This document shows positions 31,151 to 51,944 of a stretch of DNA of 64,000 bases, piece by piece (positions within the stretch are counted from its first letter, which is position 1; every line of letters begins with the position of its first letter). The stretch covers positions 825 to 64,824 of the forward strand of contig DIJZ01000020.1 of the NCBI GenBank assembly GCA_002421425.1, given 5' to 3'. The notes under the pieces were generated by a model that was not told where the DNA came from, ran no database searches, and saw nothing but the letters and a program-made list of their open reading frames with translations. Position numbers and translations under genes: made by a program. This DNA comes from a candidate division WOR-3 bacterium UBA5631. Lineage in GTDB: Bacteria > Hydrothermota > Hydrothermia > UBA1063.

Positions 31151-31169
31151 TTTGCACCCCTTTCCTAAT

Positions 31170-32518: not shown

Positions 32519-32563
32519 GAGTTAAGAACTCCTTTTGCAGTGTAGCGCATATTTCAGGATCCC

Positions 32564-32983: not shown

Positions 32984-33512
32984 GCCATGCTCCCCTCCAG
33001 GAGTATACCCTGACCTGTCCAAAGGCATTTACTCCGATACACATCAGATTCCTGTTATCGTTGATGTAAATTTCACCCGGCGTCTCACAGAGGCCGAAAA
33101 CGGAAAATACCACCATGTTGTTTTCAGACCCCGTGCCAAACATAATCCCATCGGAGTCAATAGTACCTCCACCTAAACTAGTAGCAGAACCCAATCCGCC
33201 AAGATTCACCCTAGGACTAAAATAATTAGGATAACTGGCGAGGGTAGAATCAAGATTTGGCAAAGGCTTGTTCTGGTCCTCTATTCTAATTGTCACATTT
33301 TTACCATTAAAAATCAACGCTCGCCTGTTGCTGGCAGACATAGCTGTGGTTCTCTCTGTCTCAAGAAGGGCTTTGACCTTGAAGGCCTCATTTCGTAGCC
33401 TGTTTCTTGCAACCCACCGGTTACCTCCCCAGAAGGGAATCGCAATAACGACACTCATAATAAAGATCACAAGCAATATCTCAATGAGAGTCATGCCCTT
33501 CTTGAGCTTCAT
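32970..33512 (-). CDS. fimT: FimT/FimU/GspH-like minor pilin
   Basis: MKLKKG|MTLIEILLVIFIMSVVIAI; 180 aa. Confidence 0.6.
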   Translation of the reverse strand: MKLKKGMTLIEILLVIFIMSVVIAIPFWGGNRWVARNRLRNEAFKVKALLETERTTAMSASNRRALIFNGKNVTIRIEDQNKPLPNLDSTLASYPNYFSPRVNLGGLGSATSLGGGTIDSDGIMFGTGSENNMVVFSVFGLCETPGEIYINDNRNLMCIGVNAFGQVRVYSWRGAWHEEK

Positions 33513-33523
33513 CTTTCACATCC

Positions 33524-34720: not shown

Positions 34721-34734
34721 TACTAAACCTCCTT

Positions 34735-35520
34735 TTATTTTTTCTCTTCTGCTAATTTTAGTTCAATCCTTCTTGTGAATCCAAAATCTACAGTGGCAAA
34801 AATTACACGGTCGGACTCAATTTTCACAACCCGACCGTTTCTAACCCTATCCCCTTCTTTGAGTACGTAACCTACTCCCCTCCGATCCTGCAGCAGGGCA
34901 ACGTCTCCCTCTTCACTTCTAATCACACCAAGGAGTTTTGCCTCACTAACGTTCAAAAGTTCCTCTTCTCCTTCCATAGCTTCGGGCCGGAAAGGATCTT
35001 TTTTACCTCTTGACGAGTAGAAATACTTTTCTCCCAGTTCCAGTTTGTAAGCCTCTGCTTTGGGTTTCTCGGAAGGTTTCGCAGGCTCAGTATAAGTTTT
35101 CTGAGGTTCTTGCGTCTCCGTTCTATACGGTTCCTGGGTAACGCCTCCTACGAGAATCGTCAGCTTCCCCTCAGACTGTGCAACGGTGTAGGTCCGAAAG
35201 CCATCTACATCGAGGACAACTCTAGCCACAGGCACCGGGTCTCTTTGAAACTGTGCTCCTCTCATACGCTCAATGCCGCCTCTACCAACTACAAAGAGCT
35301 TCTCGCCGAGACCATAAGATACATTTATAAGGTCAATGACAATCCTGGGAGGGTTGGAAAGAGTAAAATGTTTGTATTCAGGGATACCCCCTGTGAATTG
35401 AAGCTCAACAAGAATACCTTCAGGTGTCTCCTTTATCGAATATGCACTGAGAGTATTTTGAGCCTGCAGAACTCCAGCAGAAAAGACAAAAAACGCTATA
35501 AAAGATAGTATTCTCTTCAT
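34735..35520 (-). CDS. pilP: AMIN-domain plus PilP-like pilotin/alignment protein
   Basis: Signal ...GVLQAQ. N-terminal half carries AMIN-like motifs (PPRIVIDLINV; ARVVLDVDGF). C-terminal ...EGDRVRNGRVVKIESDRVIFA resembles the PilP beta-domain. Confidence 0.5.
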   Translation of the reverse strand: MKRILSFIAFFVFSAGVLQAQNTLSAYSIKETPEGILVELQFTGGIPEYKHFTLSNPPRIVIDLINVSYGLGEKLFVVGRGGIERMRGAQFQRDPVPVARVVLDVDGFRTYTVAQSEGKLTILVGGVTQEPYRTETQEPQKTYTEPAKPSEKPKAEAYKLELGEKYFYSSRGKKDPFRPEAMEGEEELLNVSEAKLLGVIRSEEGDVALLQDRRGVGYVLKEGDRVRNGRVVKIESDRVIFATVDFGFTRRIELKLAEEKK

Positions 35521-36101
35521 TTCTTAGCACCTCCGCTAACACCGGCCGCAGGGTTGTATATGTAGCAAATCACTGTAAGTCTACCTCTCACGGTCTGCTG
35601 ACTTTCCTTGTCAGAACCAGAAAGTCGTTCAATCTGCAAATTTTCCACACTCATTATTCTCTCGGAGTTAGCAATAAAACTTATGAAGGTCCCGAGTTCA
35701 TGAAAACCACCCTGTACATCCATACTTACAGGATATTCCACGTACAACTCTTTTGGCCTTGCTGCCTGGGGTTTGAATCCCGTAATCTGAACTCCAGAAG
35801 TTATTGCCATACCCGTTATCTGAGCAAGCCACTCCTCCATTTTCTCTTCCTGTGGAAGGTATTTCTGAGTTTCCTGCCACAGAGCAAGGAGGGAATCTTT
35901 TTCCCTGATTATCCGGTCATAATCTTTGACATAATCCCTTAGATTCTGTACTTTTGTATATTGAGTTTTATACTGGCTCTCAACTTTCTTCAGTTCCCTG
36001 GATTTTGAAGCATAAACTGAATTCCAGAGAAAAAGAAAGGTGAGAACATAAACTATAACAGCTAACAACCATATTACTATCGGCGATTTAAGTTTCTCCA
36101 T
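35517..36101 (-). CDS. pilO: Type IV pilus assembly protein PilO
   Basis: N-terminal TM, coiled coil, then a ferredoxin-like C-domain. ATGA overlap with pilP. Confidence 0.65.
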   Translation of the reverse strand: MEKLKSPIVIWLLAVIVYVLTFLFLWNSVYASKSRELKKVESQYKTQYTKVQNLRDYVKDYDRIIREKDSLLALWQETQKYLPQEEKMEEWLAQITGMAITSGVQITGFKPQAARPKELYVEYPVSMDVQGGFHELGTFISFIANSERIMSVENLQIERLSGSDKESQQTVRGRLTVICYIYNPAAGVSGGAKK

Positions 36102-36109
36102 ATTCCCCT

Positions 36110-36556
36110 CTAATCAGTTTGGCGCTTAAGGTAAATTGTTGGAAGATTAGCATCTTTCCCCGGTGTGAGAGTATATCCAGTAATTTCTCCGTATCCCGGA
36201 CCCAGAACATTATCAAAATAGAATGCCTGAATTTTGACACCAATGTTTGATACCGGAGGGAATCCCTCGTAACCTGTTGTTGGATAAACGACAAAAGAAT
36301 AATCGCCAGTAGAATTGGTAGTAGTTTCAAGGACTGGACCCGTATATGGGTAGTCAGTAGATGGATCTCCTACAAGATAAAGTCTTGCGCCCACAGCCGG
36401 TGTCTCCACAAAGGTCGTTTCATTATGAACCGTATCTATGTACGCAATGATATAAGCAACCTTACCATTTAATGTCACGGACTTGTCGACATAATCACAA
36501 GACGAAAATAAAATAGCAACCACTACTGCAATACCAAGATATAAATACTTCTTCAT
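36110..36556 (-). CDS. Lipoprotein with carboxypeptidase-regulatory-like/transthyretin-like beta-sandwich, inserted between pilN and pilO
   Basis: Lipobox ...LFSSC. LNGKVAYI...STGDYSF pattern typical of CarboxypepD_reg folds. Confidence 0.45.
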   Translation of the reverse strand: MKKYLYLGIAVVVAILFSSCDYVDKSVTLNGKVAYIIAYIDTVHNETTFVETPAVGARLYLVGDPSTDYPYTGPVLETTTNSTGDYSFVVYPTTGYEGFPPVSNIGVKIQAFYFDNVLGPGYGEITGYTLTPGKDANLPTIYLKRQTD

Positions 36557-36570
36557 AATTGAACCTCCTT

Positions 36571-38187
36571 TTATTTCAGTTTTACATTTAACTCAAAACT
36601 TGCGTACCGCTCCTCCTGACTCCCTGCAACTTCAATAGACAGGAGGCTCACTGAATCTACAATTGCTGATTTCTTGAGATTTGTCATAAATTGTGAAATT
36701 CTCATGTTAGAAAGGGCCGCACCGGAAATATTAAGATAATCCCCGCTTCTCTTCAAAGAAGAAAGCCAGCATCCTGAAGGTAGCACCCTGTTAACCTCAT
36801 CAAGAAGTTGTACGTACCTTGTCCGGCCAATTTGAAGTTCTTTTATCAAATCAATTTTTCTTCTTGCGTCTTCGATCTCTCTTTTGAACCCACTAATTTC
36901 ATCAGCCTTCTTCTGAAGTTCCACCTCTTCAGCCTGAAGAGCCACAATTTGCTTCTTCAGTCCTGAAATTCTTCTTGAAGTGCCTATCGTAAGTCCCAGA
37001 ATTCCAATAACGATGAGTAACCATATAAACAGAGCTCCGACTACATGCGGGAGTATTGAGACCTCTTCTACAGCACCCACCGCTTCCATGCCACCTTCTT
37101 GTGGTATAAGGTTTATCCTGTGTTCTTTTCTGTAAAAGTGCAAAACATCCCCGAGGACTATTGGAAGTAGATGAATATTCTCCTTGAGTCCTTTGACTGG
37201 CTCTTCAACCGCAAACAGAGTCCCGAGATCCAGGAACTTTAGGTCTACTCCGTATTTGTTCTTAACAAAGGTACCAACACCGTAGAGCTGGCTTCCTCCT
37301 CCAGAAAGATAGAAATTGAATTTTGCACCAGCCTCTCCAAGGACAGGAACGAACTTCTCCGGGGAAAGGAACCGGTCGTGTAGGGACTCCATAGTCTCTT
37401 CGAAGGAACTCTTTTCGATATTAGCAGTCGGACCATTTATAGCAACCTCTTCAGCTTCTTCTACCCTGAGATCATAGAACCTCGATAGGTTATCGACATA
37501 GGATTTTATTCCCGAGGGAACTTCGAGCATCTGTTGGATTTGTCCATCTTTAATATGGATCAACAGTGCAACTTCGTACCCCATATGGAAGAACACATTA
37601 TCACCGGGTATGTTCTTAAGCCCAAGAGCTTCTATCACCCTGTACAGAGAGACAAGATCCGTAGTAACCATTACGGGTTCCAGTCCAGAAGCTCTCACGA
37701 TGTCCATTATATCGTAAATAAGGCTTAATTTTGCCGTCCCAACAAGAATATCCACTGACTCGGCAATCTGGCTCATGCCAAGTATTTCATAATCCCTGAC
37801 AATTTCCGTCGGATCAACGTGCAACTCTTCTTTTATCTTCCAGTCCACTGCTTCAGCAAGCTTCTCTTTCTTCTTATAGTAGGGAATCACCATCGCTTTA
37901 GACTTTACCTCTCCGCCGGCAACATTTACAATAACATTCGATACATCGGTACCCATTTTGGCAAAAGCATCCCTGATTTTATCTATTAAGACTTGCCTGT
38001 CAATTATGTCCTTCCCGAGAATGACATCAGGAGGAATTTTTTCCATGGAGAAAGCCCTCAAGATGATTTCTTTCTTGACTTTCTCAAAAAGAGCTAATTT
38101 TATGTACTTTGACCCTATATCTAACACAATCACGGGTCCTCTGGCTTTCCCCTTTAAGCCTTTCGTTACATTACCGATAAAAGCCAT
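36571..38187 (-). CDS. pilMN: PilM-PilN fusion protein (actin-like ATPase-fold PilM, then TM plus PilN periplasmic domain)
   Basis: VIVLDIGSKYIKLALFE (PilM) at the N-terminus. INLIPQEGG, TM ALFIWLLIVIGILGL and a C-terminal PilN-like domain. Confidence 0.75.
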   Translation of the reverse strand: MAFIGNVTKGLKGKARGPVIVLDIGSKYIKLALFEKVKKEIILRAFSMEKIPPDVILGKDIIDRQVLIDKIRDAFAKMGTDVSNVIVNVAGGEVKSKAMVIPYYKKKEKLAEAVDWKIKEELHVDPTEIVRDYEILGMSQIAESVDILVGTAKLSLIYDIMDIVRASGLEPVMVTTDLVSLYRVIEALGLKNIPGDNVFFHMGYEVALLIHIKDGQIQQMLEVPSGIKSYVDNLSRFYDLRVEEAEEVAINGPTANIEKSSFEETMESLHDRFLSPEKFVPVLGEAGAKFNFYLSGGGSQLYGVGTFVKNKYGVDLKFLDLGTLFAVEEPVKGLKENIHLLPIVLGDVLHFYRKEHRINLIPQEGGMEAVGAVEEVSILPHVVGALFIWLLIVIGILGLTIGTSRRISGLKKQIVALQAEEVELQKKADEISGFKREIEDARRKIDLIKELQIGRTRYVQLLDEVNRVLPSGCWLSSLKRSGDYLNISGAALSNMRISQFMTNLKKSAIVDSVSLLSIEVAGSQEERYASFELNVKLK

Positions 38188-38201
38188 TCTAAAACCCCCT
38201 T

Positions 38202-39449
38202 TTATTTGCTTTCCTCAACGAAAGCATTCAAAACCTTGTTTAATAAAACTTCATCGATCTTTTCCCCTAACCTCTTGTACGTCAAAAGCTCTCTAACCAC
38301 TGTCTCAATCTTTTTCAGATTCAACCCCGGCCTTTTAACTATTTGATCAATTATGCTCACCGGAAGCCCTTCTTCACCCATAAAGTTCTTAACAACTTCT
38401 CTTTTGAGTTCCACTGTAGGCTCCTCAATCCCTATGCCCATAAATCCATTTAGTAACGACTTTATTTTCTTACTGAGAGTAGGCATATCTTTTAAAGGCT
38501 GGGCGGAAGTAATAACCACCTGTTTATCCTGCGAAACAAGTTCAGAAAGAACTGTAAAGAGGGCTTCCTGAGCGAAGTCTTTTCCAACCAGAAAATCAAG
38601 ATCATCAAAAAGAAGAAGGTCAGTGTCGCTCAACATGCCAAGGTACCTCTCCAGCTCCCTTTCAGTCTTAAGCCCTTTCAAAGTCGTTACAAACTTAAAG
38701 GCATCAATGTATATAAAACGCCTTAGCGCTTCATTCTCAAGAATATAGTTGGCAATGGACTGCAAAAGATGTGTTTTGCCCGTTCCATCATGTCCGTAAA
38801 TGAAAACCCTTCTTTCTGCTACCCCTCTGGTCTCTGCAAGGTCTTTACACAATAGAAAAGCATGCCGATTAGATTCACCGGTAACATAATTCTCAAAGAC
38901 TTTATCCTTCGCTATTAGAACTCCAATTTCTCTTCTCACTCTCTCCACACCAAACGGTTCCTGGATTCTCTCCTCTCCTCCTGCTTCGACGTAATATTTT
39001 TCGATGGCTTCCCGGATTTCGCTGATGGTTGAGATAAATGGCCTTATCTTCAAATCAGTTACGTTCTTTATCTCAGCAAGCATTTCTTTGTTAACAGGGT
39101 TTGCCATGGCAACGGCGAGAGACTTGCCCTTCTTTCTTATTGGAATCAAAAGATACTTTCTTGCAACTCTTCCTGGGATATGCTCAACTGCTTCGGGGTC
39201 TATATCAATATCCTTGAGCCTTACATAGTGAAGCATTGGAAAACTATCAAGAATGAACTTTACAAGTTGCTCCTCGTTTAGAAATCCCTTTTCCACTAAA
39301 ATCTCTTCAAGGGTCCCTCCCCTTTCCCATTGCTCAGTAAGGGCTGTTTTTATAGCTTCCTTAGTTATAACTCCGCTCTTTTCCAGCAAATCTATAAAGG
39401 TAACCTTAGTACCGGTTTTCTCATCAGCTTTCACATCTTTCCTTATCAT
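38202..39449 (-). CDS. Fusion of a T2SSE_N/MshEN-like N-terminal domain with a DnaA/Hda-type AAA+ module (no DnaA domains I, II or IV)
   Basis: Residues ~15-150 resemble the GspE/PilB N1 domain with two MshEN-like 24-mer halves (TFIDLLEKSGVITKEAIKTALTEQ and TLEEILVEKGFLNEEQLVKFILDSF). The C-terminal module shows DnaA domain III traits. These are ENYVTGESNRHAF, Walker A GHDGTGKTHLL, Walker B LLLFDDLDFL, sensor-1 VVITSAQ, and box VII/sensor-2 ...NLKKIETVVREL. Confidence 0.7.
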   Translation of the reverse strand: MIRKDVKADEKTGTKVTFIDLLEKSGVITKEAIKTALTEQWERGGTLEEILVEKGFLNEEQLVKFILDSFPMLHYVRLKDIDIDPEAVEHIPGRVARKYLLIPIRKKGKSLAVAMANPVNKEMLAEIKNVTDLKIRPFISTISEIREAIEKYYVEAGGEERIQEPFGVERVRREIGVLIAKDKVFENYVTGESNRHAFLLCKDLAETRGVAERRVFIYGHDGTGKTHLLQSIANYILENEALRRFIYIDAFKFVTTLKGLKTERELERYLGMLSDTDLLLFDDLDFLVGKDFAQEALFTVLSELVSQDKQVVITSAQPLKDMPTLSKKIKSLLNGFMGIGIEEPTVELKREVVKNFMGEEGLPVSIIDQIVKRPGLNLKKIETVVRELLTYKRLGEKIDEVLLNKVLNAFVEESK

Positions 39450-41200
39450 TGTACACTACTCCTTAAAGATTTAACCTTTTCCGCCACACTCTTAAAATTT
39501 GAATCAAAGACGTAAACCCTGGTATACAACTCCTTTGCCTCCAGAAACCTTTTCATGCTTTCAAGGGTCTGGGCAAGATAATAATACGCTTCAAGGTAAT
39601 CCTTCTCCATATATCCTACCTCCTCAACAGCCTTTCTCAGTATAACCTCAGCAAATTCTAAATCACCCCTTTCATAGAAGATCTTCCCAAGGAGTATCAT
39701 AGCCTGAAGCCGAAACCTCGGATCATTAAGCAGCTTCTGAAGTTCCTCCACCGCCGCCTGATAAAGCTTCATCTCATAGTACTCCTTCGCCACGTCAAAA
39801 GCAGGATCCTGAGGATATGGCCATTCTTCGAAAGTGAGGATGTCTTCCTTCAACTCTCTAAGTACTTTAAGTAAATACTCAAAATGTTCCCTGTCGGGTA
39901 TTCTCTCAACCCTCTCATAAATGGGTTGTTCCTCCTTCTTGCCTTCTTCTGTCTCTACCTCAGGTGGTCTCTTCTGGGTGGTTTTTGTGACAGGTTCGGA
40001 CTTTATTTCCATCACTTCCTGAGGGATCTTTAACTCCTCTCGCTTTTCTGTTACTTTACGCTTCTCTGTTTCTTTCTTCTCAGTAATCTTCAAAAATTCC
40101 TCAAAAGATTTCCTTAAAACTTCGGGGTTCTCTTCCGACTTCAAAACCTCCTCCAGAGCAGGGGGCTTCTCTTCGGTGATAATTTCCTCTTCCTTTTTCG
40201 GAACTTCTTCAGGAACAACTTTCTCCCACAGCTTTTGCTCTTCCTCAACTTCTTCAGGGACCTCCTCCTCCACTACAGTCTTGAATCCTTCCGCTGGAGG
40301 TGCCTCCTTCGCAATAACAGGCTCTTCAACTACTTGTGTTTTTTCAGATACTTCCTCAACGGGCATTGCCTCCTGCGGAGGCGGTGTCTCTACAACTTCA
40401 GGTTGCTGCAACGGGACTTCCTCAGAAGGCTTCTCAACCCCGAGGAAATCTGCAAAACCAGATGATGTGATAAAGGTTTCTGGTTCTTCCTCTTCTTTTT
40501 CCACGAATTCAACCTTTTCGACTTCTTGCTCCTCTTCTCTCTTTTTTGCAGCCTTCTTTTCCACTTCAGAAGTTCCACCGTGTTCCTCGGGTCCAAAAAA
40601 ACCACCATATGAACCAAAATCACCCTTTTCAAAGAACTCCTGAGGTTCTGCAAATTCTATGCCCCCATCCAGACTCATTATAGAAAGGGACTCTGCCAGC
40701 TCCTGTAGTCGAACAAATAACCTCTCAAACTTTGCGGCTTGCTCGGTGTTCTCCTGAATCGCATTCGCAAATTCATTTATTAATCTTAGCAGTTTACCAA
40801 CATATGTCGGGTCAATAGTCGGCAGCTTAATAAGTTCCAGTGCCCAGTCCAGTGCCTTATCGACATTCCCGTTCTCCAGTTCCATTTCTACGAGGTCAAG
40901 ATACGTATCATATTTTTCTTTATCGAGTCTAATTATCTTCTTTGCAATGGAGATAGCGATTTCTCTGAAGTCCTGTTCCTTATACATTCTGTAAGCTTTT
41001 TCTAAGTTTTCCAGCGCAAGTTCGTGGTTCTGCTTCCGAATATAAAGGTCTCCGATAGAGTTGAATACTTCGGGATCCGCTGTAACTTTTGCCAAATCTT
41101 TGAGAACCTGCAAAGCTTCATCGTACTTGCCCTGACCAATTAGTTTTTGAGCCTGCAGTTTTAGTTTTTTAACGTCAGAACCACCACTCTTAAATATCAT
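39446..41200 (-). CDS. TPR-repeat protein with central polyacidic E/P/V-rich low-complexity region
   Basis: TPR-like helices at both ends. Residues ~200-420 are rich in EEV/PEE repeats. ATGA coupling to the downstream MshEN-DnaA gene. Confidence 0.6.
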   Translation of the reverse strand: MIFKSGGSDVKKLKLQAQKLIGQGKYDEALQVLKDLAKVTADPEVFNSIGDLYIRKQNHELALENLEKAYRMYKEQDFREIAISIAKKIIRLDKEKYDTYLDLVEMELENGNVDKALDWALELIKLPTIDPTYVGKLLRLINEFANAIQENTEQAAKFERLFVRLQELAESLSIMSLDGGIEFAEPQEFFEKGDFGSYGGFFGPEEHGGTSEVEKKAAKKREEEQEVEKVEFVEKEEEEPETFITSSGFADFLGVEKPSEEVPLQQPEVVETPPPQEAMPVEEVSEKTQVVEEPVIAKEAPPAEGFKTVVEEEVPEEVEEEQKLWEKVVPEEVPKKEEEIITEEKPPALEEVLKSEENPEVLRKSFEEFLKITEKKETEKRKVTEKREELKIPQEVMEIKSEPVTKTTQKRPPEVETEEGKKEEQPIYERVERIPDREHFEYLLKVLRELKEDILTFEEWPYPQDPAFDVAKEYYEMKLYQAAVEELQKLLNDPRFRLQAMILLGKIFYERGDLEFAEVILRKAVEEVGYMEKDYLEAYYYLAQTLESMKRFLEAKELYTRVYVFDSNFKSVAEKVKSLRSSVQ

Positions 41201-41205
41201 AATGT

Positions 41206-43068
41206 TTAATTATACTCAAAATGCTTGTCAGTGTCAAGAAGTAATTCAAACAATCTCCTGAGAAAACAAAAAAAGGCGGGGAATCTATCGCTGAAAACTG
41301 CTACATCTGAAACCAATAAGGAAAGACCAGAGGGAATGAACTTTTCAAAATATTTCTTTCCTTTAACCCTTGATAGATATCCGTATGCACCCAGAGCCTG
41401 CATGTGCCTCTGAATCCTCGTAAAGTTCAACTCTTTATATAAGTCCTCAGAAGAAAGATCTATACCCGATAATTCGGAGCAGTTGAGTATATATGAATTT
41501 ATTGCATCCTCTCTAATCTTGCTGGATACATCTGTGTATGGGTCAAACAGCAGGGATGCCAGGTCATAACTTCTTGGACCCCATCTGAGCCCTATGAAGT
41601 CCGTTACGCCCAGCTCCCCGTTTTGTCTAACCATCAAGTTCTGGCTCTGAAAATCTCTATGGAGAACTACATGCGGAAATTTCGAACATTCCACTGCAAT
41701 AGAGTCAAGTTCCTCCATAACCTCTTCAGGAACTTCCAGGCGCCCGTAGGGAAGTACAAAATTATTGATAAAATGAGCCTGTTCCCAGCGGAAATATTCC
41801 ACGTCAAATACAAAACTGCCGAAATCTTTTGATAAAGAAATAGTGGGACCCAGGGAGTGAAGTTGCGCAAGGATACGTGCGGCCTTTCTGTAATAATCTG
41901 GTGCGTTTTTCTGATTCGGAGGATATTTTAAAAATGTATACAAAGTGATATCTCCGAAGTCTTCCATCCAGATCAGGTTTCTTAAAACATCCACGTCGAG
42001 TATTTCCGGCACAGGAACCCCACAAAAACGAAGAAATTCTGACGCCTTAAGGTGCTTATTGAAATTTTCAACATCATCACCGTAATCGCACAAAATTATT
42101 CTCTTTCTACCCTGGAGTACTCTGAAAAATTTTCTGTCTGACCCACCATGTCCAATGGAATATTTGTTCCCGTGGCCACCCATAGCCAGAACTTCATCAA
42201 AGGAAAGTTCTCCAGACGGTGATAGGATCATGTTCTCGTAGCGCCCCACTCGTAGGCTGCTTCCTGGTAAGATTATTGCATTTCTGAAAAACGCCCTGCC
42301 CTCAATACGACACTCCCCTTCCATTATTAGAAATCCATCAAACTTAATATCAGGAAACTCCGGCTTACGCAAGTTCTGGAACAGGTTCTCACCCCTCTTC
42401 TTCAGCAAATAAAACACTGTGCGGGCATAACCTTCCGGAGTACCGATGTCAGACCAGAATACATCCCCAATATCGTATACACTCACTTTAAGACCTCTAT
42501 TGAGGGCGTCAAGCCAGATGGTTTTTGCATCGAGGAATTCGACAGTGAATTTCTCAAAAACATCTTTTTTGTAAACTGCTATCCCCGCAAATCCAGTTAA
42601 GCCTGTGTGTTCGTCAATCCCGGTAAACCTTTCATCCGAAACTACGAGGTTCCTCTTAGGAACGTTCCTGCTCACTGCGAGAGTAATATTAGACTCCGTT
42701 CTTAAGAAGAATTCGATTATCTCTCTAAGATCAGTTTCACAGTACACGTCTCCATTATGAACAAGAATTACGTTACTTCTAAAAAGACTGGACATATTGA
42801 CCAGCGCACCTCCAGTCCCGAGAATTTCCCGTTCCTCAATAAAAGTTAACTCATTTCCAGTAGAACAAAGGTGTTCTCGAATTACATTACCCATATAATG
42901 GAGGTTAACCAGAACCTGAGTGGGATTCAACTCTTCAATTTTTGAGTGAATCTTTTCAAAACAGGTCTCTCCGAGGATGGGAAGTAGTACTTTTGGGATC
43001 GAATAAGTAATTGGTCTGAGTCTCTCTCCCAGCCCTGCAGAAAGAATCACGGCATCAAAATTAGTCAT
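41206..43068 (-). CDS. Bifunctional MurNAc-1-P uridylyltransferase / anomeric MurNAc(GlcNAc) kinase (MurU-AmgK fusion)
   Basis: N-terminus AVILSAGLGERLRPIT is sugar-nucleotidyltransferase GxGxRL. The C-terminal half is an APH-like kinase (VLHRDFQSQNLMV, DFIGL). The start is taken at the internal MTNFDAVIL Met (43066-68). Confidence 0.65.
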   Translation of the reverse strand: MTNFDAVILSAGLGERLRPITYSIPKVLLPILGETCFEKIHSKIEELNPTQVLVNLHYMGNVIREHLCSTGNELTFIEEREILGTGGALVNMSSLFRSNVILVHNGDVYCETDLREIIEFFLRTESNITLAVSRNVPKRNLVVSDERFTGIDEHTGLTGFAGIAVYKKDVFEKFTVEFLDAKTIWLDALNRGLKVSVYDIGDVFWSDIGTPEGYARTVFYLLKKRGENLFQNLRKPEFPDIKFDGFLIMEGECRIEGRAFFRNAIILPGSSLRVGRYENMILSPSGELSFDEVLAMGGHGNKYSIGHGGSDRKFFRVLQGRKRIILCDYGDDVENFNKHLKASEFLRFCGVPVPEILDVDVLRNLIWMEDFGDITLYTFLKYPPNQKNAPDYYRKAARILAQLHSLGPTISLSKDFGSFVFDVEYFRWEQAHFINNFVLPYGRLEVPEEVMEELDSIAVECSKFPHVVLHRDFQSQNLMVRQNGELGVTDFIGLRWGPRSYDLASLLFDPYTDVSSKIREDAINSYILNCSELSGIDLSSEDLYKELNFTRIQRHMQALGAYGYLSRVKGKKYFEKFIPSGLSLLVSDVAVFSDRFPAFFCFLRRLFELLLDTDKHFEYN

Positions 43069-44233
43069 AAAGCAGAAAATCCTTACGTATGTTTTCGTTG
43101 AAACTTTCGCTTTGGGCTTGCCACCAGGCTTCCATCTCGTCCAGCTTTTCACGCCTCTCAAGTTTCAGTCGCAACTCATCGGTTCCCACAAGGATATCGA
43201 AGGGAAGCTTCACGTACTCGTACTCATAAGGGGGCTGCTTCCAGCGAAACTCTTGAGGGTAAAGCTCCATCATCGCCTTTATCACGGCAACCCCAATTTT
43301 AAAGGGCTTCACTTTTTCTTTGCTTAAGATGTGAATCTGCACTCCACCACACTTTTCGCCAGCAAATTTATTGAAAGTTGGGATAAAATAAAGGGGGCGA
43401 AACGTTGTGCCATCAAGCCCAAGGGTACTGAGATAGTCTGCAAGAGAAAAAGGCTCTATAAATGGTGCACCAAAGATTTCAAAGGGTCTCGTAGTACCCC
43501 TTCCCTCACTGATATTCGTGGCCTCAAGAAGACACATACCTGGGTACAAAATTGCCGTCTTCTCTGAAGGCATATTGGGCGATGGATTCACCCAATCAAG
43601 CCCTGTATCCTGCCAGAAATGTCTTCTACTCCACCCCTCCATTTTTATTACTCTCAATTCTAAGTCAGAAAGGTATTTGTGCTTGAAATAAGATGCAATT
43701 TCGCCAATAGTCATTCCATGTCTAACAGGCAGCGGCTTAAGGCCAACAAAAGAGGCAAATTCTTCTTTCAAAACCGGACCTTCAACAAGAGAACCTGAAA
43801 TTGGGTTTGGACGGTCTAGCACTACAATAAATTTGCCGCATTCCATGGCAGCTTCCATGGTGAGGTATAAAGACCAGATATAAGTATAATATCTTGACCC
43901 AACGTCCTGAAGGTCGACCACCACTCCATCAACCTCCAGAAGGACTTCAAGGGGCGGCTTCCTTGCCTTCCCGTAAAGGCTGTACACAGGAATGCCCGTC
44001 CTGAGATCACGATAACCTTCCCACTCTATCATATTGTCTTGCGTTTCACCAAAGAGGCCGTGCTGGGGAGCGAAAACGGATTTAACACTAACTTTTTCAA
44101 ACCCCAAAAACGCATCCAGAGTGCTCTTCAGATTACCAAGGTAAGAGGCAGAGTGAATGAGGAGTGCAACTCTCACTCCCTCAAATTCCGAAGGCCATTC
44201 TTTTTGAAACAGGTCCACACCCAGTTTAGTCAC
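43061..44233 (-). CDS. namZ: DUF1343 family exo-beta-N-acetylmuramidase (NamZ-like)
   Basis: 390 aa; the call is based on family-level resemblance to DUF1343. 8 nt overlap with the upstream gene. Confidence 0.55.
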   Translation of the reverse strand: MTKLGVDLFQKEWPSEFEGVRVALLIHSASYLGNLKSTLDAFLGFEKVSVKSVFAPQHGLFGETQDNMIEWEGYRDLRTGIPVYSLYGKARKPPLEVLLEVDGVVVDLQDVGSRYYTYIWSLYLTMEAAMECGKFIVVLDRPNPISGSLVEGPVLKEEFASFVGLKPLPVRHGMTIGEIASYFKHKYLSDLELRVIKMEGWSRRHFWQDTGLDWVNPSPNMPSEKTAILYPGMCLLEATNISEGRGTTRPFEIFGAPFIEPFSLADYLSTLGLDGTTFRPLYFIPTFNKFAGEKCGGVQIHILSKEKVKPFKIGVAVIKAMMELYPQEFRWKQPPYEYEYVKLPFDILVGTDELRLKLERREKLDEMEAWWQAQSESFNENIRKDFLLYD

Positions 44234-44903
44234 AGAGAGACCTCTCCTTGAAAAAAGAACAAATGGCTTTTAAAGGGCAGCCAGGGCAGTCTGGGTCTCT
44301 TTTTGTGCAGTGAGTCTTCCCCAGGCGCACAAGTAGCGCATGATACTCATTGAACTTCATAACATCGTGATCCAGATTTTCCATAAAAAAACGCTGGACT
44401 TCCTGATAAGAAAGGTCTGAACCTTCGAAAATCCCCAACCTGGAAAAAATTCTCCGCGTATAAGCATCTACAACGAAAATTGGCTTACCAAAGGCGTAAA
44501 GAGCTATGGAATCCGCCGTTTCAGGCCCAATTCCATCAATTTCAAGAAGCCTGCCCCTCAGCTCCTGGATGCCCATCCTTTTAAACCTTTCAATACCACC
44601 CGAATCGACCAGCGCCTTTATCAATTCTTTCAGCCTCGCAGCCTTTATCCGGTAAAAACCGCTGGGCCTTATCAGTTTTGCAAGTTCTTCAACGGAAATT
44701 TTATGCAACGAATCCAGGTCCAGAAGACCTGCTTCCTTTAGGTTCCATATTGCCCTTTCAACGTTTCTCCACGATGTGTTCTGAGTAAGGACAGCTCCTA
44801 CGATAATTTCAAGTTCCCCGTCCCCAGGCCACCAGTGTTGAGGTCCGAAGCGAGAATAAAGAAGTGAAAAGACCTTCTCAAGAATCTCCCTCATCTTCTT
44901 CAT
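44226..44903 (-). CDS. HhH-GPD superfamily DNA glycosylase with [4Fe-4S] FCL motif (EndoIII/MagIII-like)
   Basis: LTQNTSWRNVERA and CTKRDPDCPGCPLKAIC (C-x6-C-x2-C-x5-C). Start uncertain within 44894-44951. Confidence 0.6.
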   Translation of the reverse strand: MKKMREILEKVFSLLYSRFGPQHWWPGDGELEIIVGAVLTQNTSWRNVERAIWNLKEAGLLDLDSLHKISVEELAKLIRPSGFYRIKAARLKELIKALVDSGGIERFKRMGIQELRGRLLEIDGIGPETADSIALYAFGKPIFVVDAYTRRIFSRLGIFEGSDLSYQEVQRFFMENLDHDVMKFNEYHALLVRLGKTHCTKRDPDCPGCPLKAICSFFKERSLCD

Positions 44904-45807
44904 AATCGAGGAGACTTTCACCTTCCACAATATCGTAAAGCCCCGATACAAGTTCGCCCAAAAAACCCATAAGGAAGAAAATAAGACCAGAAATGAGCAA
45001 AAACATTACCAGGTAAAGCAATGGCCTATAGCCAAAATGCTTGAAAATTCTCAGATACAAAGCGACAACTCCTGCAAGTACACCAAGAACAAGCGATGCA
45101 AGACCGAGTCCACCGAAGAAGAACATCGGTTTTCTTCTAAAAGTAATTAAGAATTTCACAGATATAAGATCAAAGACACCCACCAGTACCCTTCCCACAC
45201 CTCTGTACTTACTTACACCATGCATCCTTGGCCTGAGAATAACTCTCTCTTCTCCTACCCTGAAGCCCAGTTCCTTTGCCCATGGAATAATATAGCGGTG
45301 CCAATCTTTACGAAGTGGAAGGAGTTCGAGCACTTCGCGCCTCATAACCTTTATGCTATTCATATCGTGGATTTTGATGCCGAACAACATTCGCACAAGG
45401 AAGTTATATATACTGGATACCACTTTCTTCTCATATTTACCAAGTTTCCAACCTGCCACGAGATCTAATCCATCGGTCTCAATCCTGGAAACCATCCTTT
45501 CCACGTCCTCGAGCGTGAATTGGAGGTCGGCAGGGAAAAAGGCCACAAGGGGCGCCTCAGAGTGCTTCAGGGCAGTTTTAAGTGCGTGAGTAACGCCAAG
45601 ATTTCTTCTGTGGCGGAAATACTTGACATTTCTATATTCCGGCACCAGGCGCTTCAACTCTTCATAAGTTCCATCGGTAGATCCGTCGTCTACGATAATC
45701 ATTTCCCAATCAACATGCCGCCTTTCAACAAAGCCCTTGAAATAGTCAAGTAAGGGCCTGATGTTGTCCCGTTCGTCCTTTGCAGGAACCAGAATTGAAA
45801 GTCTCAT
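44878..45807 (-). CDS. GT2 polyprenyl-phosphate glycosyltransferase (GtrB/DPM1-like) with 2 C-terminal TM helices
   Basis: LSILVPAKDERDNI...IIVDDGSTDGT, and a C-terminal double TM helix. Confidence 0.75.
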   Translation of the reverse strand: MRLSILVPAKDERDNIRPLLDYFKGFVERRHVDWEMIIVDDGSTDGTYEELKRLVPEYRNVKYFRHRRNLGVTHALKTALKHSEAPLVAFFPADLQFTLEDVERMVSRIETDGLDLVAGWKLGKYEKKVVSSIYNFLVRMLFGIKIHDMNSIKVMRREVLELLPLRKDWHRYIIPWAKELGFRVGEERVILRPRMHGVSKYRGVGRVLVGVFDLISVKFLITFRRKPMFFFGGLGLASLVLGVLAGVVALYLRIFKHFGYRPLLYLVMFLLISGLIFFLMGFLGELVSGLYDIVEGESLLDYEEDEGDS

Positions 45808-45871
45808 GCTTCAATTATACATTCAACGGAAAGCCAATGCAACGAAAATTTCAGGTTTTTTCGATGTCATC

Positions 45872-46786
45872 CTATTTTTCCCTGAGTCGTCCTTTTTCAA
45901 AAAAGGCGAAAGCAAAAAGGAATAATATAAAATCACCAAGCACAAGAGCTACTCTTGTTAGGATTGAAAAAGCAGATGCAACCTCTCCGCTGTATGTACC
46001 TCTGAGGAGAGTCATAAGAATTGACTCCCTGACGCCAAGGCCGGCAGGTGCAATAATGGTCAGATATCCAAGAATCCAGGAGATAGGGTAAGTTGTTACT
46101 GAATCCAGAAGGCTTACCCGAATAGAGGACCCCTGAATCATTACCCAGAAGGAGACGCCGGTTAGTATCCAGAGCACGAAGTATAAAACAAAAACAACAA
46201 GGTTTCTCCTTAGGTTGAGGTTTATTCTGGATAGATCCATTTCCACTTTTCTCAGACGCGCGTACAATTTTAAGAAGAACTTAATAAAAGAAGGGTGCTG
46301 AAGGGTAAGAAGTACAAGAAAAAGCAAAGAAGCATATAAAAGCCAAAGCTGAGATACATTGCCGCGCAAAAAAAATCTAATGAAAAACACCATAATAGCT
46401 GCTGCACTGGAAATTATCACTTCAAGGAAAACGGTCGTTAGTGTAATTTCGGGTTTTATTTTCTTGGTTAGAGCAACTCTCCCGACGAACTGCCACACTT
46501 TACCAGGGATGTACTTTCCTACATTAGAGTAAATCCAGGAGATAATTGAAGTCTTCAGAGGAAGTTCATACCCAAATCCCTGGACTATGTACCTCCACAC
46601 AAAGGGATAGGCAGATATTATGAAAGCCAGCATAAGTAAGCCTGCGCAAAGACACAGAGGTTTCAATGTTAGGAAAGTATCGCTAAAGGCTTTAGCATTC
46701 CTGACAAGAGGTGAAGCAACATAGTAGAAAAGAAACAGAACTAAAAGAACCTGTGCTACTCTAAGTAGAATTACCTTTGCGCTCAT
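45872..46786 (-). CDS. Polytopic membrane protein, flippase-like (UPF0104/LPG-synthase TM-like)
   Basis: 8-9 predicted TM helices; no soluble domain. Confidence 0.4.
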   Translation of the reverse strand: MSAKVILLRVAQVLLVLFLFYYVASPLVRNAKAFSDTFLTLKPLCLCAGLLMLAFIISAYPFVWRYIVQGFGYELPLKTSIISWIYSNVGKYIPGKVWQFVGRVALTKKIKPEITLTTVFLEVIISSAAAIMVFFIRFFLRGNVSQLWLLYASLLFLVLLTLQHPSFIKFFLKLYARLRKVEMDLSRINLNLRRNLVVFVLYFVLWILTGVSFWVMIQGSSIRVSLLDSVTTYPISWILGYLTIIAPAGLGVRESILMTLLRGTYSGEVASAFSILTRVALVLGDFILFLFAFAFFEKGRLREK

Positions 46787-49188
46787 CAGGGTTTTCTTAT
46801 AACCAGTACCAGGGCGAACAGAGATATCAAAAATCCTGCAGCAGATAGCGCAAATCCAACTTTGTGGAAAATTGAATCAAACTTCATCAAAATTGTGTGT
46901 TCTCCTGCAGGGCAATATACGGCTCTGAAGGCGTAGTTTGCAGTGTACACTTCCGTTTGCTTGCCATCAATGTAGCATTTCCAGCCAGGATGATAGTTTT
47001 CAGAAAACACGACAAATCCCGCTTTGGGAAGGTCTACTTTCACGTCAATTCTATTTGCATCATATCTTGTAAGTTCAATTACTGGACTTCCCGCTTGCGT
47101 AGCCGCTGAAACGGGAATTCGGGGATCTTTTTCCAGAAAAACGAAACTTTTCAGAGAATCTGAGGGTAGCACCTTCAACATCGCCAGGATTGAATCCGGA
47201 GGAAGAACTCTGTACGCCTCAGCAAAGTACACCCTCCCAAGATTACTGGAGTTTTCATAAAGGGCAAATTGCCCCAGGGGCGATACCAGTCTGAAATTCC
47301 CCAGATACTGGATCCACTCCCTTATAGCCTTTCTTGTAGCCTCATCGTACCTTAAAGTATCGATTATCTGGAAGTTATAAGCAATTACATATTTAACATC
47401 CAGGAGATTTAGCATCTCCGGGTGTGAAATTAGGTTCTGCGGGTTGAACATCACGCTCTGCCCAGCCCCAATAAATTCCTGATACCTCCTTGGTGGAGAA
47501 CTTGTATACCCTCCAATAGAGCTAACTCTATGTATTATTAGTGTCCCATCGTTGGCCCTCGGGTACATAAGGGGAAAGATTCTGAAAATACCTGCTTCGT
47601 TCTTAATTGTTTTTATCACAGGATCTTCTCCATACATTTCATCCATGCTGCGTCCCGTATCAACAATGAAATTTCTATTCACAAGATACAGGTCAAGGAA
47701 AACGAGCAAGGATAGCCCTATGGATAAAGAAAGTGCCTCTCTTCTTTTCTTTGAAATAACCACAAGAATCGCATATGCAAGTCCTGCAATGACCAATGAA
47801 AGTAAATAGGATCCGAGAAGTTTCCCGTACCCTTCACCAAGAATGAATATTTTGTCCTTCACATTGCCTGCATCCTTTGCTCTTTGAAGCATTCCAGAAA
47901 ACATACTTATTATTCCACTCTTGAACATCAATAGAATAAGAAATAGTACAGAAAATGCACCCAGGAGATAGAGACCTTCTTTCACGAGCTTTTTTAATTC
48001 TAACTCACCCCTCAAAACACCTTTTATACAAATAGAAGCCAGTATGACCGATATATAATTAAAGATAAAAAACATTAAACTTGGAGCTCTAAACCTTTTT
48101 ACCATCGGAAGAACATAATAGAAAATTTTATAGAAAGGCGTAAAACCTCCCCACACGTAAAGGAGCACAAATACGGCATAAATTGTCAAAAATCTTACCA
48201 GCTTATCTTTCTTCATTTTCGTTACTATCGTCGTCAGAGCGAGGAAGAGTGTAATTATTCCCATATACTCTGTGTGCAGCTTGAAATAGTTTCTTCCCCA
48301 GTATTCATCAAGAATTCCTGAAAAACGGGGCGTAATTAAATTGAGAATTTCCTCGGGAGGCATTGACCAGCTCACCGCATATTCATATCCCCTCTCAGCA
48401 CCCCTCGCAGTGAAAGGCAAATTTTCAAAGACAGGGAGCAGGTAAAAACTGTACATTAGTGCCGCAACTAACCCTCCAAGAACTGAATATAGGGCATAAA
48501 TATAGAATTTTTTGCTTTTCAGGTTGTTTCCCTGAGTGATGTTGTAAAAAACGAAGAAGCATATCAAAAACAAGACTCCATAGTAAGTCATTTGAGGATG
48601 TCCGTTCAAAAACGAGAATCCTACCGCCGCACCCATTAACAAAAAATACCCCAGCTTGCCTGAGTCAATACCTTTAACAAGGAGAGCAAGATATAAAGGC
48701 AGGAGTGCCATGCTGGTCAGACGGCCCAGATGTCCAGCATAAGTCGTGGAGACAAGAACGCCAGAAAATCCATACATTACTCCACCAATTAAGGCTGTAA
48801 GGTCATCTTTCAGGAATTCTCTCAGAAAAAAGTAAGTAGAAATCCCCGCAATGGTTATCATAAATATAAAACCAAGAACGTGCGATATGTGCACTGGAAA
48901 TACAAAAGTACTCAAGAACCTGAGAGTCAAGATTTCAGGGAAAAAAGCTCCAATTGTAGGCATCCCGGAGAAGACATAAATATTCCAGAAAGGAAGTGAA
49001 TGATTCGCTTTAATGTAATCCCTCATAAAAACCCAGTTTGCGTATCCTCCATTCAGCCAGTCAGTACCCATTAGATTTTTTGATGGTGAGAGAAAAGCAA
49101 CATACAACACAAGTGAAAGGGTTAAATAGGCAAGAAATACTACGTACGGCTTCAACTTGAAAACCTTCTCCTGAACAGTTCGTGCCAT
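46786..49188 (-). CDS. YfhO-like GT-C fold membrane glycosyltransferase
   Basis: 800 aa with many N-terminal TM helices and a large C-terminal extracytoplasmic domain, ending in a C-terminal TM helix. Size and architecture match YfhO. Confidence 0.5.
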   Translation of the reverse strand: MARTVQEKVFKLKPYVVFLAYLTLSLVLYVAFLSPSKNLMGTDWLNGGYANWVFMRDYIKANHSLPFWNIYVFSGMPTIGAFFPEILTLRFLSTFVFPVHISHVLGFIFMITIAGISTYFFLREFLKDDLTALIGGVMYGFSGVLVSTTYAGHLGRLTSMALLPLYLALLVKGIDSGKLGYFLLMGAAVGFSFLNGHPQMTYYGVLFLICFFVFYNITQGNNLKSKKFYIYALYSVLGGLVAALMYSFYLLPVFENLPFTARGAERGYEYAVSWSMPPEEILNLITPRFSGILDEYWGRNYFKLHTEYMGIITLFLALTTIVTKMKKDKLVRFLTIYAVFVLLYVWGGFTPFYKIFYYVLPMVKRFRAPSLMFFIFNYISVILASICIKGVLRGELELKKLVKEGLYLLGAFSVLFLILLMFKSGIISMFSGMLQRAKDAGNVKDKIFILGEGYGKLLGSYLLSLVIAGLAYAILVVISKKRREALSLSIGLSLLVFLDLYLVNRNFIVDTGRSMDEMYGEDPVIKTIKNEAGIFRIFPLMYPRANDGTLIIHRVSSIGGYTSSPPRRYQEFIGAGQSVMFNPQNLISHPEMLNLLDVKYVIAYNFQIIDTLRYDEATRKAIREWIQYLGNFRLVSPLGQFALYENSSNLGRVYFAEAYRVLPPDSILAMLKVLPSDSLKSFVFLEKDPRIPVSAATQAGSPVIELTRYDANRIDVKVDLPKAGFVVFSENYHPGWKCYIDGKQTEVYTANYAFRAVYCPAGEHTILMKFDSIFHKVGFALSAAGFLISLFALVLVIRKP

Positions 49189-50618: not shown

Positions 50619-51944
50619 ATGAGGAAAAGAGTAATTATAATGGGCGCTGCCGGAAGAGATTTTCACAACTTTAACGTATTTTTCAGAGACAATGACGAAT
50701 ACGAAGTCGTGGCTTTCACTGCAACTCAAATCCCGGACATTGCAGGCAGAAAGTATCCTGCAGAACTTGCAGGGAAGCTCTACCCAGAAGGTATTCCCAT
50801 TTACCATGAGGACGACCTTGATAATCTCATTAAGGAAAACAAAGTTGACTTCGTCGTATTTTCTTACTCCGACGTATCCCACGAATATGTAATGAACAGA
50901 GCTTCCAAAGCACTGGCAGCCGGAGCCAACTTCATGCTACTCGGCCCTGGATCCACGATGGTGAAATCTGTAAAACCTGTTATTTCTGTGTGTGCCGTAA
51001 GAACAGGTGCAGGGAAGAGTCAGACCACAAGAAGAGTAGCAGAAATCCTCAGAAAACTTGGCAAGAAAACCGTGGTGGTTCGGCACCCGATGCCTTACGG
51101 AGACCTTACAAAACAGGTGGTTCAGAGGTTCGCAAGTCTTGAAGATCTGGACAAACACCACTGTACCATTGAAGAAAGAGAAGAATACGAACCCCATATT
51201 GACCGTGGAAATGTAGTCTATGCGGGTGTGGATTATGAAAAGATCTTAAGACAGGCAGAGCAGGAGGCTGATGTGGTTCTGTGGGATGGAGGTAATAACG
51301 ACTTTCCGTTCTTCAAAACTGACCTCCACATTGTTGTCGCAGATCCGCACAGACCAGGACATGAGGTTACATACCATCCAGGAGAAACGAATTTGCGGAT
51401 GGCTGATATCATTATAATAAATAAGGTAGACACAGCCTACCCTGAAGACATTCAAATGGTTCGAGAGAATGCAAGATCTGCCAACCCTAAAGCGATAATC
51501 ATTGATGCGGCATCTCCTATATACGTTGAAAACCATGAATCCATTAAAGGGAAAAAGGTGCTCGTGATCGAAGATGGACCCACATTGACCCATGGCGAGA
51601 TGGCTTACGGAGCTGGCTATGTTGCGGCGGAAAAATATGGAGCCGCAGAAATTATTGATCCAAGACCTTACGCTGTGGGATCGATAAAGAAAACTTATCA
51701 AAAATTCACCCAGCTTGAGATGATCCTGCCTGCTATGGGATACTCTCCAAAACAACTCAGTGAACTTGAAGAAACCATTAACTCAGTACCTGCAGATCTG
51801 GTAATTGTTGCCACTCCAATTAACCTTGGAAAGATCCTCAAGATTAATAAACCTTACGTGCGAGTGAAATATGAACTTCAGGAAATTGGAAAGCCCGATC
51901 TTGAGGACATTATCAAGGAATTTTTTGCTACCAGGGAGAAATAA
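50619..51944 (+). CDS. P-loop NTPase domain protein, tentatively cyclic 2,3-diphosphoglycerate synthetase-like
   Basis: GAAGRDFHNFN N-terminus and Walker A CAVRTGAGKSQTT. 441 aa. The family assignment is from memory and is not verified. Confidence 0.3.
   Translation: MRKRVIIMGAAGRDFHNFNVFFRDNDEYEVVAFTATQIPDIAGRKYPAELAGKLYPEGIPIYHEDDLDNLIKENKVDFVVFSYSDVSHEYVMNRASKALAAGANFMLLGPGSTMVKSVKPVISVCAVRTGAGKSQTTRRVAEILRKLGKKTVVVRHPMPYGDLTKQVVQRFASLEDLDKHHCTIEEREEYEPHIDRGNVVYAGVDYEKILRQAEQEADVVLWDGGNNDFPFFKTDLHIVVADPHRPGHEVTYHPGETNLRMADIIIINKVDTAYPEDIQMVRENARSANPKAIIIDAASPIYVENHESIKGKKVLVIEDGPTLTHGEMAYGAGYVAAEKYGAAEIIDPRPYAVGSIKKTYQKFTQLEMILPAMGYSPKQLSELEETINSVPADLVIVATPINLGKILKINKPYVRVKYELQEIGKPDLEDIIKEFFATREK

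Follow-up and report, generated by a model that had tools for sequence, protein, structure and literature searches.

Two overlapping genes on the minus strand of a 64,000-nucleotide stretch of DNA from the candidate division WOR-3 bacterium UBA5631 (contig DIJZ01000020.1 of assembly GCA_002421425.1; this whole stretch is referred to below as the window) raise the question of whether this organism salvages the peptidoglycan sugar N-acetylmuramic acid (MurNAc) by an anabolic route, and of whether the position of these genes just ahead of a type IV pilus operon has any functional meaning. One of the genes encodes a protein homologous to NamZ, an exo-β-N-acetylmuramidase, and the other encodes a single chain in which a nucleotidyltransferase resembling MurU is followed by a kinase resembling AmgK. 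We interpret the pair as a cytoplasmic cassette, complete in itself and probably coupled in translation, that salvages MurNAc anabolically, a reading to which we assign a probability of roughly 0.65.

Both open reading frames (ORFs) are present on the minus strand where a preliminary description of this DNA had placed them, inside a long array of minus-strand genes (Table 1). The start of the fusion gene had to be revised. The mechanically delimited ORF begins with a TTG codon at 43161, while alignment with 20 homologues places the real start at the ATG at 43068. With this start the protein has 620 residues, and the overlap with the NamZ-like gene, whose stop codon occupies positions 43063–43061, is 8 nucleotides (ATGACTAA) and not about 100. 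With that correction, the earlier claim that a NamZ-like gene overlaps one ORF combining MurU-type and AmgK-type domains is borne out. An 8-nucleotide overlap of the gene coordinates is also seen in Dissulfurispira thermophila and in one WOR-3 relative, and thus recurs across phyla. A start codon laid over a stop codon is an arrangement typical of translational coupling, and the two genes are probably coupled in this way.

Table 1. Positions of the salvage gene pair, its parts and its immediate neighbours in the window
Feature	Position	Strand	Remarks
HhH-GPD DNA glycosylase gene	44226..44951	minus	Pfam E 5.5e-19; NCBIfam 3-methyladenine DNA glycosylase, 120 bits
NamZ-like (DUF1343/GH171) gene	43061..44233	minus	390 amino acids; GTG start
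MurU-AmgK fusion gene	43068..41206	minus	620 amino acids
Start/stop overlap ATGACTAA	43061..43068	minus	8 nucleotides, read from the sequence; fusion start codon over NamZ stop codon
Sugar-1-phosphate nucleotidyltransferase domain, MurU-like	42394..43068	minus	residues 1-225; Pfam NTP_transferase, NCBIfam, Foldseek
All-β linker, left-handed β-helix-like	42184..42393	minus	residues ~226-295; DSSP strands, Foldseek
APH-fold sugar kinase domain, AmgK-like	41254..42183	minus	residues ~296-605; Pfam APH, NCBIfam AmgK
C-terminal tail and stop codon of the fusion	41206..41253	minus	residues 606-620; holds the promoter of the next operon in its codons
Sigma-70 promoter, TTGACA-17 nt-TATAAT	41209..41237	minus	12/12 consensus match
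TPR protein gene, head of the pilus cluster	39446..41200	minus	ATG at 41200

Pfam detects two families in the single frame of the second ORF, NTP_transferase (E 1e-15) and APH (E 4e-23). An independent assembly encodes a 99%-identical protein, all of the 120 best-matching clusters of homologues measure 596–694 amino acids with both domains in each, and the AlphaFold2 model is a single compact structure with a predicted local distance difference test score (pLDDT) of 91.9 and a predicted template-modelling score of 0.90. The fusion is therefore not an assembly artefact, and the combination of the two enzymes in a single ORF, as first described, is real. The two motifs quoted in that description are found where expected, GLGERLRP at residues 12–19 and HRDFQSQN at residues 470–477, and correspond to invariant columns of the family alignment. 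The linker between the domains, with strands assigned by DSSP on the AlphaFold2 model at residues 229–289, resembles the C-terminal domain of GDP-mannose pyrophosphorylases, a domain that stand-alone MurU does not have; weak Pfam GMPPB_C matches occur in homologues of the fusion. The C-terminal tail is specific to WOR-3 and is missing from the Nitrospirota homologues in the family alignment, and its residues 614–620 were modelled at pLDDT below 50. The protein is MurU-like and AmgK-like rather than a demonstrated orthologue of either enzyme.

For the kinase half, the proposed assignment as an AmgK-type kinase of the APH fold holds. The domain alone matches two NCBIfam AmgK models with E 1e-18 and 1e-12, and these are the sole significant kinase families, the next one being 13 orders of magnitude weaker (E 2e-5). 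All 21 diverse members of the fusion family that were tested match both AmgK models. The closest solved structure is 3csv (E 7.5e-17), a protein that itself scores 236 bits on an AmgK model. The catalytic loop H470-R-D472-x4-N477 and the metal-binding D490 are intact, with H470, D472, N477 and D490 invariant in the family alignment, and the motifs DPY and QRHMQALGAYG are also present. Linkage of the kinase to a nucleotidyltransferase, a trait of AmgK, takes the form here of fusion in one ORF. Neither a choline kinase nor an ethanolamine kinase model matched this half, and the assignment survives that comparison. A function of the choline kinase or LicCA type was considered as a separate candidate and rejected, as the models for choline kinase, LicA and LicC gave no match at E ≤1e-5.

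The nucleotidyltransferase half contains the conserved residues G12-x-G14-x-R16, K26, T85-G86-G87, N105-x-D107 and W205-x-D207-x-G209. Its G-x-G-x-R-x(2)-P signature is thus complete, the lysine and the aspartates that bind the metal are in place, and G12, G14, R16, P19, K26, D107 and D207 are invariant. In Foldseek comparisons, the core of this domain fits the MurU crystal structures of P. putida and P. aeruginosa (4y7t, 4y7u, 4y7v and 8hhd) with target-normalised template-modelling (TM) scores of 0.85–0.86 and root-mean-square deviations of 2.7–2.8 Å, at 28% identity to Pseudomonas putida MurU (4y7t/u/v). The fit to HddC is poorer (TM 0.79–0.80; 3.3–3.4 Å). All 21 members of the family match both MurU models of NCBIfam, and MurU is marginally the best-scoring model across the family (best E 3e-34).

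The upstream partner is a member of the DUF1343/NamZ family, as had been proposed. It matches both Pfam domains well above their curated thresholds, NamZ_N with E 6e-76 (254.8 bits, cut-off 26.9) and NamZ_C with E 2e-53 (181.5 bits, cut-off 25), as well as two DUF1343 proteins of solved structure, 4k05 (E 5e-68) and 4jja (E 7e-49). The ORF opens with the earliest start codon available to it, its N-terminus is hydrophilic (MTKLGVDLFQKEW), and no open frame upstream could accommodate a signal peptide; the NamZ partners encoded at other fusion loci likewise have no room for one. Judged by these N-termini, the fusion-linked NamZ is cytoplasmic. In contrast, all characterised NamZ proteins, those of Bacillus subtilis, Tannerella forsythia (NamZ1-3) and Bacteroides fragilis, have a signal peptide and act outside the cytoplasm (PMC8054146; bioRxiv 2021.12.02.470905).

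The association of the two genes is widespread. When one genome of each GTDB species was scanned, 590 relatives of the kinase motifs emerged, and the best 80 of these were used to compare loci. Contig truncations aside, all of these 80 are full-length fusions, so that the architecture is present in at least 80 species-level genomes. The hosts include WOR-3, Nitrospirota (Thermodesulfovibrionia, Nitrospira, Dissulfurispira), Caldimicrobium, Deferribacteres, Hydrogenedentota, Rokubacteria, Victivallales, Elusimicrobia, Eisenbacteria and Puniceicoccaceae, the closest named relatives of the window fusion being candidate division WOR-3 bacteria. The position of NamZ at each locus was determined by tblastn with the window proteins. 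Seven of the 80 contigs were too short to judge, which left 73 informative loci; in 55 of these (55/80 overall) NamZ lies directly upstream of the fusion gene on the same strand, and in two more of the 80 it lies within 4 kb. Loci with an upstream NamZ come from WOR-3, Nitrospirota, Deferribacteres, Elusimicrobia and Eisenbacteria. When the ORFs around the fusion genes were clustered all against all, the picture was the same: NamZ was recovered in 53 loci, in every case upstream and on the same strand, and no second widely shared neighbour emerged, the next families being unrelated ones (sigma-54 activators, ParB, an NTPase) in nine loci at most. Because NamZ is the only widely shared neighbour and, apart from a GlmU-like gene at one locus, no alternative takes its place, the conserved unit is a two-gene cassette in variable surroundings. 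This conservation of the pairing across phyla strongly supports its interpretation as a salvage module.

The surroundings differ accordingly between lineages. In D. thermophila the pair is unaccompanied by pilus genes, and genes for an amidohydrolase, an AmpG-like permease of the major facilitator superfamily and a GH3 (NagZ-type) glycosidase lie a few kilobases downstream in convergent orientation (locus L003, 11438–15220). In three other Nitrospirota loci some or all of these recur: an amidohydrolase, an AmpG-like permease and a GH3 glycosidase are found in the same way at locus L007, and the permease and amidohydrolase only at loci L008 and L019. In the window, the stop codon of a DNA glycosylase gene overlaps the NamZ start by 8 nucleotides, with the same gene order in WOR-3 relatives, so the co-directional array mixes unrelated functions. 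Further upstream (44878–49188, minus strand) are encoded an 800-residue YfhO protein, a membrane protein of 304 amino acids (its counterpart in a relative matches LPG_synthase_TM) and a GT2 glycosyltransferase that has a membrane tail, a combination that resembles envelope glycosylation sets of the CsbB/YfhO type.

In the route that we propose, the NamZ-like protein would act first, and among its substrates would be oligosaccharides that NagZ has already trimmed. The C-terminal AmgK-like domain would then phosphorylate MurNAc, and perhaps N-acetylglucosamine (GlcNAc) too, at C1, and the N-terminal MurU-like domain would convert MurNAc-α-1-phosphate and UTP into UDP-MurNAc, which would re-enter cell-wall synthesis at a point after MurA and MurB. 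The sequences show the domains with their catalytic motifs, the fusion, the cytoplasmic location of NamZ and the conserved pairing, and the substrates and products of all three steps are inferred. The fosfomycin tolerance suggested in the preliminary description is, for this organism, an extrapolation from Pseudomonas only.

Several observations weigh against a MurNAc salvage function. Both halves fall far short of the equivalog cut-offs of NCBIfam, the N-terminal one for MurU (NF045761, 77 bits against 250; NF045697, 43 bits against 370) and the C-terminal one for AmgK (65–67 bits against 550; 45–48 bits against 500). In addition, the N-terminal half scores 88 bits on the mannose-1-phosphate guanylyltransferase model and 74 bits on the archaeal GlmU-type model, compared to 77 bits for MurU, and it has a GMPPB-like β-helix appendix. 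MurU is a minimal single-domain enzyme of about 225 amino acids that has no C-terminal β-helix; here this domain is followed by the β-helix-like segment and then by the kinase. The MurU-type assignment consequently stands in part: the structure of the core fits MurU best, but the sequence ties with mannose-1-phosphate guanylyltransferase and GlmU-type models. Since these other models score equally and the appendix is GMPPB-like, the specificity for both nucleotide and sugar is left ambiguous. The founding paper on NamZ reports that organisms with AmgK and MurU mostly lack it (PMC8054146). In the 64-kb window we found no gene for a permease, GH3/NagZ, AmpG, an amidase, AnmK, MupP or MurQ. Finally, 16 of the 80 loci (16/73 informative) have the fusion gene without NamZ. 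No alternative partner is apparent at these loci, where the neighbours are unrelated (among them a P-type ATPase, a dienelactone hydrolase, an alanine symporter and a sulfatase), except at the Nitrospirota locus L017, where a nucleotidyltransferase that resembles GlmU and has a hexapeptide-repeat domain (8766–9992) is encoded directly upstream of the fusion in the usual place of NamZ.

The NamZ-like protein itself contributes another point of this kind. Its motif APQHG has a glutamine, Gln57, whereas 4k05 has PEHG, and (G/A)PQHG with glutamine is found in all fusion-linked NamZ proteins examined (59 in one of the comparisons). Aligned with the sequence that we take to be that of B. subtilis NamZ, the numbering of which reproduces both E92 and R279, the window protein is 42% identical, with Gln57 opposite the proposed catalytic Glu92 and Arg245 opposite Arg279. 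Because the glutamine replaces this glutamate in every fusion-linked NamZ, hydrolase activity is not to be taken for granted, although it is plausible that the protein is enzymatically active. Relatives of the family fall into 2186 clusters at E ≤1e-30, and we compared the nearest 150 representatives, of which about 90–100 have glutamate (E-type) and 32–36 have glutamine (Q-type) at this position. Gln57 co-varies with N67 and M68 (99–100% of Q-type proteins), E70 (91%), R91 and Y338-E339. Common to both types are D102, D107, D110, D140, E178, E237, E243, D346 and R245; the last, in the motif SEGRGTT, is 98% conserved across Q-type and E-type proteins, and the arginine of the C-terminal domain that faces the active-site cleft is thus kept, as are most conserved residues of the family. 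From these sequence patterns, the Q-type can be considered a defined NamZ subfamily. The idea that the glutamine is confined to fusion-linked NamZ was rejected, as the gene for P0145, a Q-type protein of divergent sequence, is not followed by a fusion gene. The same holds for two E-type proteins that are close relatives (P0126 and P0127). The fusion-linked proteins therefore appear to be a subset of the Q-type, in a sample too small for a rule.

These ambiguities suggest two other readings of the pair. The fusion could activate a different sugar, either as a 1-kinase for GlcNAc or another N-acetylhexosamine with a pyrophosphorylase or as a hexose kinase with a GDP-sugar pyrophosphorylase, for use in envelope glycosylation, and NamZ would then only supply sugar for catabolism or re-routing. 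YfhO, the membrane protein and the GT2 glycosyltransferase, encoded upstream in the same array, could be users of such a product, but they accompany the pair only in WOR-3, and the sole partner shared across phyla belongs to a MurNAc-specific glycosidase family. The mannose-1-phosphate guanylyltransferase score exceeds that of MurU in the window protein, and over the N-terminal ~330 residues the best Foldseek matches are VTC1 and GMPPB (310–333 columns aligned), that is, GDP-mannose pyrophosphorylases with the same β-helix appendix; for the core, however, MurU is closer than HddC, and across the family MurU is the best model. The kinase half matches AmgK models only, while Pseudomonas AmgK is an enzyme that also phosphorylates GlcNAc, and the GlmU-like gene in place of NamZ at L017 fits a different sugar as well. 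Taken together, we consider activation of another sugar unlikely, though it deserves to be kept in mind. The other reading concerns NamZ, whose Q-type form may not be a hydrolytic exo-muramidase: it could catalyse phosphorolysis to give MurNAc-1-phosphate, act on another substrate, or only bind sugar. The replacement of the glutamate in all fusion-linked proteins, when most of the nearest representatives keep it, and the co-varying N67, M68 and E70 signature speak for this, and the product of a phosphorylase would be a substrate of MurU. On the other hand, a kinase domain would be less needed if MurNAc-1-phosphate were made directly, the acidic residues and Arg245 common to both types are many, and proteins of the two types are up to 47% identical. 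Moreover, it was a homology model that led to the proposal of Glu92 as the catalytic residue, which was not mutated in the same work (PMC8054146). We give this second reading only a small probability.

The third alternative arises from the genes downstream. These form a genuine type IV pilus cluster that extends to 27572 and, according to Pfam, encodes a TPR protein, an MshEN/AAA+ protein, PilM-PilN, PilO, an AMIN-domain protein, a secretin, pilins and PilY1. With only 5 nucleotides between the fusion stop (41206) and the TPR start (41200) and no terminator-like hairpin between the two genes, read-through into the pilus genes is likely, and the salvage genes could be co-transcribed with those for pilus assembly and recycle local turnover products as the pilus machine is inserted. 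AMIN is a peptidoglycan-binding domain, and the arrangement is kept in four WOR-3 loci with fusion proteins 46–55% identical. Nevertheless, these four (L001/L002, L005 and L006) are the only loci in which a pilus cluster adjoins the pair; four loci outside WOR-3 show just isolated weak matches (94–119 bits) to a secretin or an AAA+ protein. The pilus operon also has its own, perfect sigma-70 promoter, lying within the final codons of the fusion gene (LLDT encoded by TTGACA, EYN-stop by TATAAT) and 8 nucleotides before the TPR ATG. This is the sole perfect match in the window, compared to 0.02 expected by chance, and both hexamers and the 17-nucleotide spacing are kept in three other WOR-3 genomes with fusion proteins of the same 46–55% identity (L001 ~9836–9864, L005 ~11829–11857, L006 ~4871–4899), the -10 box being intergenic in one of them. 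The promoter would mark a transcription-unit boundary across which some read-through may occur, and the WOR-3-specific, poorly modelled tail of the fusion looks like coding sequence constrained by it. In addition, the unrelated DNA glycosylase gene is part of the same conserved array, as is typical of compact genomes. A link between cell-wall recycling and pilus biogenesis, as the preliminary description had suggested, is therefore not borne out, and we regard it as highly improbable; the position of the pair ahead of an operon predicted to have a strong promoter of its own appears to be a WOR-3-specific arrangement, a lineage-specific accident.

Several features of the pilus cluster can be recorded beside this. 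In the window and at L005 the promoter is 7–8 nucleotides from the TPR ATG, so that the mRNA would be leaderless or nearly so, and at L001 and L006 the promoter is followed by a leader of ~40 nucleotides with a Shine-Dalgarno sequence. The gene at 38202–39449 (minus strand) joins an N-terminal MshEN domain, including a match to the model of the cyclic-di-GMP-binding motif, to a DnaA-type AAA+ ATPase domain, and its product is 69–80% identical in WOR-3 relatives. The PilM and PilN proteins are fused in one chain of 538 amino acids (36571–38187, minus strand) with a weak match to the Akkermansia Amuc_1101 PilM-like family. No gene for a PilB-type ATPase was seen in the annotated stretch of the cluster (27572–41200). 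Elsewhere in the window, a 742-residue protein (14844–17072, minus strand) with 11 LVIVD repeats ends in a Por_Secre_tail sorting domain, an indication that this WOR-3 organism may have a type IX secretion system. An ORF of 441 amino acids at 50619–51944 (plus strand) has no Pfam match and lies between genes for an aminotransferase and a metallo-β-lactamase-fold protein; its position is kept in a WOR-3 relative (L001, 92–1417).

The closest known counterpart of the proposed cassette is the AmgK/MurU route of P. putida and P. aeruginosa, which is also found in T. forsythia, Caulobacter and Legionella. Its enzymes have the same two folds and presumably carry out the same reactions, from MurNAc via MurNAc-α-1-phosphate to UDP-MurNAc, bypassing MurA and MurB. 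In the window the two activities sit in one 620-residue chain, MurU then AmgK, with the GMPPB-like β-helix linker between them, whereas the gene order in Pseudomonas and Tannerella is amgK-murU, the reverse of the domain order in the fusion. Similarity to the known enzymes is low, as seen in the identity to MurU and in the missed cut-offs for both halves, and the conserved partner is NamZ as opposed to AnmK and MupP. In the literature searched, no natural MurU-AmgK fusion is described; only reporter or tag fusions turned up. A similar logic of salvage by fusion, with the nucleotidyltransferase N-terminal, is known from Treponema LicCA (choline kinase and cytidylyltransferase) and Bacteroides FKP (fucokinase and GDP-fucose pyrophosphorylase), although the substrates differ and the FKP kinase is of the GHMP type and not of the APH fold.

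The NamZ partner belongs to the same two-domain GH171 family as B. subtilis NamZ, T. forsythia NamZ1 and NamZ2, and B. fragilis BF0371 and BF0379 (4jja and 4k05). Those proteins are secreted, unlike the fusion-linked NamZ, whose glutamine stands where B. subtilis NamZ has the proposed Glu92. The neighbours of the known namZ genes are catabolic ones (murQ, murP, amiE and nagZ, or ampG, murT, murK and murQ), whereas the namZ of the window sits with genes for anabolic enzymes. Because NamZ has so far been linked to the catabolic MurQ route and reported as mostly missing from organisms with AmgK and MurU, its coupling to the anabolic AmgK/MurU activities is a new configuration. What is new here, then, is a widespread family of single-chain MurU-AmgK proteins paired with a cytoplasmic Q-type NamZ, as a variant of a known pathway. 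A bolder interpretation, which we think rather improbable, is that the Q-type NamZ without a signal peptide is mechanistically distinct, for example as a cytoplasmic MurNAc-glycoside phosphorylase or a glycosidase with a relocated catalytic acid, and that together with the fusion it constitutes an undescribed third route of peptidoglycan-sugar recycling. If true, this route would allow Nitrospirota, WOR-3 and other mostly uncultured phyla to turn imported glycan fragments into UDP-MurNAc without AnmK, MupP or MurQ.

A cytoplasmic NamZ coupled to AmgK/MurU runs counter to the reported pattern in which NamZ and the anabolic route exclude each other, and the Glu/Gln dichotomy at the proposed catalytic residue offers a direct handle on the catalytic mechanism of GH171. 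A natural single-chain MurU-AmgK could also serve for the labelling of peptidoglycan with MurNAc probes, which now requires two co-expressed genes. If the assignments hold, anabolic MurNAc salvage, so far studied in Proteobacteria and Bacteroidota, would extend to Nitrospirota (including Nitrospira and relatives of Thermodesulfovibrio), WOR-3, Elusimicrobia and other lineages, where the pathway would be present in a compact two-gene form.

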